From assembly GCA_049517415.1 (NCBI GenBank), contig JBEKSC010000002.1:1-64000 (forward strand): a stretch of DNA of 64,000 nucleotides, given 5' to 3'. Each line of letters begins with the position of its first letter. Positions within the stretch are counted from its first letter, which is position 1. This stretch comes from Candidatus Bathyarchaeia archaeon. Lineage in GTDB: Archaea > Thermoproteota > Bathyarchaeia > 40CM-2-53-6. This document shows, one piece after another, positions 30,872 through 50,079 of this stretch. The position numbers and the translations under genes are program-made. The notes under the pieces are model-generated. The model did no database searches. It saw only the letters and a list, made by a program, of their open reading frames with translations, and had not been told where the DNA came from.

Positions 30872-31008
30872 GAGCGCCATCAAAACTGGTTTTCGAGATC
30901 AGGTTCCGTTGTTAGTTTCGATGTGTGAAAAAAGTAAGCAGCCTGTTTCAAGATGAAAAATGACGCCATGGCCCGTTCAGAACCACCATCTCACTCGTAC
31001 GAACAGGT

Positions 31009-31198
31009 TGGCGGGCCCGCCGGGATTTGAACCCGGGACCCTTCCCCAAGAAGGCTTCTCGGCCTGTTTCTTTTCGGGTGGCTTCCCATGGGTTCTAAAA
31101 GCCCAGAGGTAAAAGCATCACCGACACCTACCTGGCGTCTCCGATGCTCTACCTTTTCAGGATCCAATCTTGAAAGGATCTGACTGAGCTACGGGCCC
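31009..31198 (-). tRNA. tRNA-Lys(UUU) with four BHB introns (17/17a, 30/31, 37/38, 43/44)
   Basis: introns 31155-31181, 31117-31140, 31080-31109, 31042-31073; spliced 77 nt: GGGCCCG TA GCTC AGTCAGGTA GAGC A TCGGG CTTTTAA CCCGA GGGTC CCGGG TTCAAAT CCCGG CGGGCCC G CCA. Confidence 0.9.
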
Positions 31199-31250
31199 CG
31201 AACGTTCACAGCACGGACCAGTATCAAAAGCGTTTCGCACGTATGAAGTT

Positions 31251-49678: not shown

Positions 49679-49827
49679 TGGCGGGCCCGCGGGGATTTGA
49701 ACCCCGGACCTCTGTACCAGTGCTGGGCTGGTTCTACAGCTTTTTCCGGTGTTCCTTAGGGGGTTCGGCAACAAATTCCGCTTTATGTGCGGAGCCTGCC
49801 GCTCTATCCAACCTGAGCTACGGGCCC
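49679..49827 (-). tRNA. tRNA-Arg(CCU) with three introns (30/31, 37/38, 45/46); C at position 33
   Basis: introns 49764-49795, 49742-49756, 49710-49733; spliced arm GCAGC CCCCTAA GCTGT AGGTC; 78 nt mature. Confidence 0.85.
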
Positions 49828-49917: not shown

Positions 49918-50079
49918 GCGGGGATTCCCGAGCCAGGTCAAAGGGGCAGGACCACCCGGCGCGGTGGGGCCACACTTAAGATCAGAACTTGCCTTGGGAG
50001 ATGAGGAGACATCCTGTGGCGTAGAGCCAGCGGATGGGCGCGTAAGCCTTCAGGGGTTCGAATCCCCTTCCCCGCACCA
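49918..50079 (+). tRNA. tRNA-Leu(UAA) with three introns (30/31, 37/38, variable-arm loop)
   Basis: introns 49951-49973, 49981-50010, 50025-50045; spliced CAGGA CTTAAGA TCCTG TGGCGTAGGCCTTC AGGGG TTCGAAT CCCCT TCCCCGC A CCA; 88 nt mature. Confidence 0.9.

Follow-up and report, generated by a model that had tools for sequence, protein, structure and literature searches.

A tRNA-Lys(UUU) gene interrupted by four BHB introns in a Bathyarchaeia genome

The 190-nt locus at positions 31009..31198 of the window (the whole stretch of DNA analysed, 64 kb) is very probably a functional, and apparently the only, tRNA-Lys(UUU) gene of its Bathyarchaeia host; its product is very probably spliced from a four-intron precursor by the endonuclease EndA and the ligase RtcB. 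This reading draws on the anatomy of the gene, the geometry of its four BHB motifs, their conservation and covariation, natural alleles from which introns are absent, and the genes for the splicing enzymes in the host genome.

Gene anatomy and natural alleles

A preliminary description of this DNA placed a gene of 190 nt at the same position without stating its strand, and divided it into exons of 17, 14, 7, 6 and 33 nt and introns of 27, 24, 30 and 32 nt that leave a 77-nt product. The position is borne out, the strand is minus, and the lengths all stand: when the five exons are joined by script, ARAGORN reads them as a 77-nt tRNA-Lys(ttt) with every stem fully paired and an encoded CCA. The spliced sequence has the anticodon UUU, U33, A37 and CCA, and removal of the introns restores a canonical cloverleaf. 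Introns make up 113 of the 190 nt (59.5%), close to the earlier estimate of about 60%. Coordinates of all features are given in Table 1.

Table 1. Features of the tRNA-Lys(UUU) locus and of other genes discussed in the text. Coordinates are those of the window unless a contig of the host genome (G000) is named; H, central helix; h', intron hairpin helix; h, exon helix; a slash within a bulge marks the cut.
Feature	Length	Position	Strand	Remarks
tRNA-Lys(UUU), whole gene	190 nt	31009..31198	-	5' end 31198; encoded CCA 31011-31009; discriminator G 31012
Promoter-like element		31221..31238	-	BRE-like purine-rich stretch and TATA-like box (CTTTTGATA); about -38 to -23; putative function
Exon 1	17 nt	31182..31198	-	acceptor 5' strand, U8 A9, D-stem 5' strand, D-loop to position 17
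Intron 1, at 17/17a	27 nt	31155..31181	-	HBh' motif; H TCAG/CTGA; h' 5 bp; bulges TC/A and AA/A
Exon 2	14 nt	31141..31154	-	D-loop remainder, D-stem 3' strand, position 26, anticodon stem 27-30
Intron 2, at 30/31	24 nt	31117..31140	-	full hBHBh'; H CATC/GGTG; h' 6 bp; h 4 bp
Exon 3	7 nt	31110..31116	-	G31, then C32 U33 U34 U35 U36 A37; anticodon UUU; invariant
Intron 3, at canonical 37/38 site	30 nt	31080..31109	-	H CTTT/GAAG; exon helix h is the anticodon stem
Exon 4 (ACCCGA)	6 nt	31074..31079	-	A38 and anticodon stem 3' strand, positions 39-43
Intron 4, at 43/44	32 nt	31042..31073	-	H ACCC/GGGG, 3/4 pairs; h' 5 bp and inner 3 bp
Exon 5	33 nt	31009..31041	-	variable loop, T-arm, acceptor 3' strand, discriminator, CCA
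EndA paralogue	187 aa	41773..42336	+	both EndA domains; no His in C-terminal domain
tRNA-Arg(CCG)	146 nt	49682-49827	-	about 3 predicted introns; Rfam gathering scan 37.4 bits
tRNA-Leu(UAA)	159 nt	49918-50076	+	about 3 predicted introns; missed by Rfam gathering scan
tRNA-Pro(GGG)	177 nt	G000:C6:94952-95128	+	best parse four introns of 29, 20, 21 and 31 nt; H 4/4 in all, h' 4-5 bp
tRNA-Leu(CAG)	192 nt	G000:C4:118814-119005	+	best parse four introns of 33, 24, 26 and 24 nt; first at 8/9

Each of the four junctions is backed by a natural relative that cleanly lacks the intron in question; the intron sites claimed in the preliminary description (17/17a, 30/31, 37/38 and 43/44) are thereby upheld independently of motif scoring. 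Junction 1 is contiguous in seven congeners (L005, L009, L014 and L017-L020) and also in G003, G005 and G025. Junction 2 is contiguous in G034 and G025, from which intron 2 is absent; intron 4 is missing in L027, G023, G037 and G040, where exon 4 is directly joined to exon 5. L125 is without introns 2, 3 and 4, and between the end of the D-stem and the start of the T-stem its sequence is identical to the predicted spliced product. Intronless Lys(UUU) genes in Desulfurococcales and Sulfolobales MAGs (L049, L088) match at 73 of the 77 positions.

Standard gene finders behave poorly on the unspliced DNA. ARAGORN in its default mode makes no call at the Lys(UUU) locus, and a gathering scan of the 64-kb window with Rfam gives no match there. 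Since both can miss an essential tRNA, the tRNA sets of Bathyarchaeia draft genomes may look incomplete. A permissive Rfam scan of the unspliced gene returns the tRNA family (RF00005) with 31.6 bits against a cut-off of 29 and with insertions of 33, 63 and about 33 nt. Among natural forms of the gene, the score is 74.4 without introns, 59.9 with one, 52.5 with two and 43.9, 38.5 or 37.6 with three, the value of 31.6 belonging to the four-intron gene studied; this loss of about 10 bits per intron is the expected effect of insertion penalties on a good tRNA. With its intron option, ARAGORN proposes a tRNA-Lys(ctt) with one 119-nt intron, which was rejected for its D-arm mismatch, its 5-nt loop and an anticodon stem lying inside intron sequence. 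Other Rfam matches (Plastid-ycf2, mascRNA, HCV_SLVII, isrK, COG3610-DE and SNORD88) are noise, far under their cut-offs with E values of 0.17-5.2.

The host genome is a 2.65-Mb draft in 59 contigs, rated 100% complete with 6.86% contamination. No further gene with a UUU anticodon was found in a genome-wide tRNA scan of this draft; given the number of contigs and the contamination, a second Lys(UUU) gene could be unassembled. Lys(CUU) is specified by a separate gene of 136 nt (G000:C3:128103-128238, plus strand). By eye, this gene has introns at 30/31, at 37/38 and within the T-arm; the solver, which forbids T-arm introns, gave no parse for it. Upstream of Lys(UUU), each of the 19 orthologues has a box equivalent to the promoter-like element in Table 1 at an unchanged distance, amid flanking sequence that has diverged.

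Splice motifs, conservation and folding

Motifs were scored by the published BHB geometry in the studied gene and 18 complete orthologues of the same genus (n=19). In this geometry, the four exon bases preceding the 5' bulge form pairs with the four intron bases preceding the 3' bulge; each bulge has 3 nt and is cut after its second base. The four central helices proposed in the preliminary description are confirmed (Table 1), each flanked by two 3-nt bulges as it had claimed, and the one mismatch that it noted in the last helix is an A.G pair.

The four introns differ in how closely they follow the full motif. In intron 1, H has all four pairs in 11 of the 12 carriers and h' has 5-7 bp; the exon helix is only 1 bp. 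Intron 2 has a complete H in 18 of the 19 genes, an h' of 5-8 bp and an h of 4 bp. H is complete in all 19 genes for intron 3, whose exon helix, the anticodon stem, is complete only after introns 2 and 4 have been removed and then has 5 bp. Intron 4 has three of four central pairs, with the A.G pair outermost, in 15 genes and all four pairs in the other four; its h' ranges from 3 to 10 bp. In the studied gene itself, h' measures 5, 6, 2 (followed by a mismatch and 4 bp) and 5 bp in introns 1 to 4, and every intron has an h or h' of at least 2 bp. Introns 1 and 4 are relaxed motifs, owing to the short exon helix of the former and the A.G mismatch of the latter.

Pairing is maintained as the introns diverge. 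Standard pairs fill 96.3% of the 914 pair cells in a MAFFT alignment of the 19 genes, and 36.2-53.9% after a shift of the partners by 1-3 columns; the same shift lowers the covariation score from 0.094 to 0.017-0.034. The observed values were not reached in any of 500 shuffles. Two-sided changes are seen at seven pairs; the h' helix of intron 2 accounts for four of these (4/5 of the pairs of that helix, over 19 orthologues). The exons are nearly invariant across the orthologues while the introns vary. In exon 1, 16 of 17 columns are invariant, position 16 being the exception; exon 4 is invariant in 18 of 19 genes. The single change in exon 4, A43G in L016, is compensated by U27C in exon 2, across two introns, within the anticodon stem of the mature tRNA.

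An independent model search over 259-282 BHB-like candidates with a cloverleaf filter placed the four-intron model first, with a score of 43.2; the best models with three and two introns scored 40.0 and 33.5. The best three-intron model fuses introns 3 and 4 with exon 4 into one 58-nt intron (gene 90-147); in the resulting tRNA the variable loop would have 9 nt and different bases would close the anticodon stem. This model places three G.U pairs in the anticodon stem and has 3/4 pairs in its H. The near-invariance of exon 4, with its one change compensated in exon 2, is also unlike an intron interior, and relatives without intron 4 have exon 4 joined straight to exon 5. A gene with three introns only is therefore extremely improbable.

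A motif-free global alignment to intronless relatives likewise yields four precursor-only stretches with a total of 113 nt. It recovers intron 1 without error and intron 4 to within a base, but displaces the two middle stretches, the cause being a 9-nt copy, inside intron 3, of the sequence spanning the exon 2/exon 3 junction. The copy (window 31096-31104, minus strand; gene 95-103) sits in a hairpin resembling an anticodon arm and misleads both alignment and pattern search. It is seen in the clade of the host (L001-L005) and is not kept in more distant congeners; its origin may be partial duplication or chance. Were the copy to replace the end of exon 2 and exon 3, the same mature tRNA would be produced with other middle boundaries. 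This is the parse that the motif-free alignment chose (precursor-only stretches 57-94 and 104-119), as one of 12 equally good alignments. However, these boundaries form no BHB, with 2/4 central pairs for 57-94 when read by eye, and distant congeners without the copy keep the boundaries of the main model together with BHB motifs. The shifted boundaries are thus very improbable, and those in Table 1 are preferred.

The cores of the four motifs (H plus h') occupy adjacent, non-overlapping stretches of the gene (12-45, 53-83, 84-120 and 120/121-158), so that there is in principle room for all four at once between acceptor stem and T-arm. Competition arises among the outer exon helices: four bases are common to h of intron 2 and H of intron 3, and h of intron 4 has its pairing partner in the tail of intron 3. 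By nearest-neighbour energies the BHB conformer is not the favoured one; the precursor MFE is -86.4 kcal/mol, against -60.6 kcal/mol with all four BHB cores, and pair probabilities of the central helices in the thermodynamic ensemble are 0-0.28. Such poor folding is taken as a limit of a protein-free energy model and as evidence neither way, being used for a weak ranking only. Forming a core within the full precursor costs 2.3 kcal/mol for intron 1, 3.7 for intron 4, 9.8 for intron 2 and 20.4 for intron 3; the last value falls to 10.5-13.9 kcal/mol once intron 2 is removed. These costs weakly suggest that introns 1 and 4 would leave early and the canonical intron 3 last.

Intron distribution and turnover

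Exact patterns run over 105 genomes of the order find introns 3 and 4 in 28 genomes and introns 1 and 2 in 37; reversed control patterns give no matches in the same genomes. All four introns are present at one locus in 13 of the 105, namely the host genome, 11 congeners and G033, which belongs to another family.

Turnover of intron 1 was followed on a tree of the adjacent syntenic ORF of 324 aa, a single gene from related genomes. The tree includes 13 of the 19 loci; L004, L006 and L009 were left out as not readable at full length, and L007, L010 and L016 as having no match. Presence of intron 1 needs four changes on this tree, of which well-supported branches force at least three, all within one genus. 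Two sister pairs differ in the intron: it is present in L003 and absent from L005, and present in L015 and absent from L020. Since intron 1 is homologous among its carriers and occurs in other families as well, repeated precise loss is the more economical reading, with the thin support that a single-gene tree can give.

Sister species that differ only by the clean absence of intron 1 also bear on the possibility that at least one of the four stretches, likeliest the one in the D-loop, stays in the mature tRNA as an expansion. The relaxed motif of intron 1, with an exon helix of 1 bp, would agree with retention. Its H is nevertheless complete in all but one carrier, and its h' shows compensatory change. 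G18 and G19 contact the T-loop in the architecture of tRNA; a 27-nt hairpin between positions 17 and 17a would displace them from this contact. Retention has a slim chance of being correct, and removal of all four introns is the reading followed here.

Two further genes in the host genome, for tRNA-Pro(GGG) and tRNA-Leu(CAG), have a best parse with four introns (Table 1). Full-length orthologues of Pro(GGG), 173-181 nt long, are present in 17 congeners, and intron 1 is cleanly absent from two genera of the same family (L179, L180). In Leu(CAG), intron 1 is cleanly absent from L200 and L201 and intron 2 from L194 and L195. The multi-intron genes Arg(CCG) and Leu(UAA) are divergently placed within the window.

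Long tRNA genes are common in this genome; 28 of 29 distinct CCA-ended tRNA-like loci found in an incomplete scan exceed 80 nt, with a median of 120 nt. The 29 loci were chosen for an encoded CCA. All verified tRNA genes carry CCA, and the CCA-less candidates of the host genome looked spurious, bar a possible tRNA-His; CCA is thus a useful filter in this lineage. Genome-wide intron counts per gene are unreliable, and only lengths and genes checked against relatives are trusted. Census counts of 4-5 introns in spurious regions or over-extended genes (e.g. C6:10932-11125) are attributed to overfitting, and a parse of C7:29750-29928 with 4-5 introns was rejected, this locus being better read as Leu(CAA) with two introns.

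In relatives, the same D-loop site is also occupied by an intron in genes for tRNA-Lys(CUU) and tRNA-Met(CAU) (L148 in G033:C31; L154 in G026:C21), and its ends, AGAYC...GGWYCCTGAA, are those of intron 1 of Lys(UUU). In G033, the D-loop intron has an identical 20 nt in both Lys genes. This suggests a D-loop intron family common to several tRNA genes, which may have arisen via transposition or gene conversion.

Two congeners have a second copy of Lys(UUU) 1-2 kb from the first (L152, G020:C7:48600-48940; L153, G011:C4:150300-150660). These copies retain introns 2-4, exons 3-5 and the last part of exon 2, but nothing recognisable as exon 1 or a D-arm lies upstream. Either pseudogenes truncated at the 5' end or the 3' halves of split tRNA genes could account for them.

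Introns 1 and 4, for which folding into the splice motif is computed to be easiest, are also the pair whose presence varies among the relatives examined, a pattern that would fit precise loss via reverse-transcribed, partly spliced intermediates. A tentative reading, and on balance a somewhat doubtful one, is that the order evolved a tRNA gene set interrupted to about the same degree as those of Asgard archaea and Thermoproteales, and did so independently of them, with introns still turning over and with precise loss via such intermediates. The presence and absence of intron 1 between sister species provides a concrete system for tRNA intron gain and precise loss.

RNA records, splicing enzymes and related systems

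RNA data consisted of contigs from two peat metatranscriptome runs with small word shares, from which four records matched. The spliced Lys(UUU) product was not seen among these four. Two of the records are unspliced relatives, covering 31008-31142 with 5 differences and 31009-31166 with 18, for which DNA carry-over is possible. Another is a different tRNA (anticodon loop CTTCTAA) with a common 3' end. The remaining record connects exon 5 with exon 1 through 47 letters, where full splicing predicts 25, and is either another tRNA or an intermediate.

Spliced RNA not being seen in the contigs of either library would agree with a decaying or silent pseudogene that retains its insertions and yields no working tRNA, as would the failure of standard finders and the existence of 5'-truncated second copies in two congeners. 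In contrast, the exons are near-invariant over 19 species while the introns drift with compensatory changes, the promoter-like box is conserved, and the four-intron form is kept in two families. AAA codons need a UUU-anticodon tRNA, and no other gene for one was found in the host genome. A pseudogene is very unlikely on this evidence, and a functional gene remains the preferred reading.

The host genome encodes two proteins with EndA domains (PF01974/PF02778) as well as RtcB (572.9 bits). The catalytic triad of EndA is Tyr-His-Lys. One of the two proteins, EndA alpha on contig C10 (L021:1213-1785), keeps the Tyr, His and Lys positions, of which the His is Ala in the 3ajv chain, and matches the catalytic subunit of A. 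pernix (3p1z_B) over 179 residues with an E value of 7.5e-39. Its residues 36-48 align without gaps to the Crenarchaea-specific loop of 3p1z_B, K43 aligning with K44; Hirata et al. showed that K44 of this loop confers a broad substrate range (PMC3241643). The paralogue encoded in the window is probably the structural (beta) subunit of the splicing endonuclease. Two paralogues, one of them His-less, fit a heterotetrameric EndA of crenarchaeal type, which is the assembly predicted from the sequences.

In the mechanism that we infer, the conserved BRE/TATA-like promoter would drive transcription of the 190-nt precursor, in which the acceptor stem and T-arm would enclose four adjacent stem-loop modules, each made up of a 4-bp central helix between two 3-nt bulges and the intron hairpin h'. 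A crenarchaeal-type endonuclease would cut each bulge after its second nucleotide; it would combine, in a presumptive alpha2beta2 assembly, a catalytic alpha subunit bearing the Crenarchaea-specific loop with its lysine and a beta subunit that lacks the His. RtcB would then ligate the five exons. Until splicing is complete, the D-arm and the anticodon arm would be absent as contiguous sequence. With introns filling 60% of its length and internal exons of 6 and 7 nt, the pre-tRNA would be a demanding natural substrate for the tolerance of alpha/beta EndA towards relaxed, overlapping BHB motifs.

Reviews and the tRNAscan-SE 2.0 paper give the maximum for archaeal tRNA introns as 'up to three' (PMC4390854, PMC8450103), and examples with three are pre-tRNA-Glu(UUC) of Pyrobaculum calidifontis as well as pre-tRNA-Pro(UGG) of P. 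islandicum (PMC4390854). The preliminary description held that four introns exceed the number known from the literature; this is true of these sources and untrue of a preprint of October 2026, which gives, without RNA proof, up to five intervening sequences per Asgard tRNA gene. Among the literature matches listed, neither a report of an archaeal four-intron tRNA nor a description of such genes in Bathyarchaeia was found; the supplementary tables of the Asgard papers may list four-intron genes. The Lys(UUU) gene raises the number of well-documented introns per archaeal tRNA gene from three to four outside Asgard, and the support for its junctions, natural alleles without each intron, goes beyond motif prediction. 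Also new are the Bathyarchaeia lineage, the two further four-intron genes in the same genome (Pro-GGG and Leu-CAG), the occurrence of the four-intron gene in 13 of the 105 genomes covered for the order, and the clean gain or loss of intron 1 on at least three separate occasions within one genus.

The three-intron genes of Thermoproteales share with Lys(UUU) protein-spliced BHB introns at canonical and non-canonical sites, overlapping motifs of which some are complete only after a neighbouring intron has been removed (PMC8450103), and an endonuclease of the crenarchaeal alpha/beta type, here one predicted from its genes. Unlike these genes, the one described here belongs to a Bathyarchaeia lineage and has four introns and internal exons of only 7 and 6 nt; RNA-library contigs of its relatives come from peat metatranscriptome runs.

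As in the Asgard genomes of the preprint, most tRNA genes are interrupted, many of them in the D-arm, standard finders miss introns, and close relatives differ by single introns. The two cases differ in phylum, and every Lys(UUU) junction is backed by a natural intron-less allele. A D-loop intron family is common to Lys-UUU, Lys-CUU and Met here, whereas such sharing is almost absent in Asgard according to the preprint.

The pre-tRNAs of C. merolae also combine several BHB introns in one precursor (PMC3728597). For a three-intron tRNA of this organism, RT-PCR showed ordered removal, with the 37/38 intron leaving after the others (PMC3728597); the helix analysis of Lys(UUU) predicts the same order. 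C. merolae is a eukaryote in which an order for three introns was seen in RNA, whereas the four introns described here are known from DNA. The alpha2beta2 EndA of A. pernix (PMC3241643; PDB 3p1z, 3ajv) is matched in the aligned loop and lysine and in the presence of a second, His-less paralogue; the same assembly in the Bathyarchaeia enzyme is a prediction from sequence.
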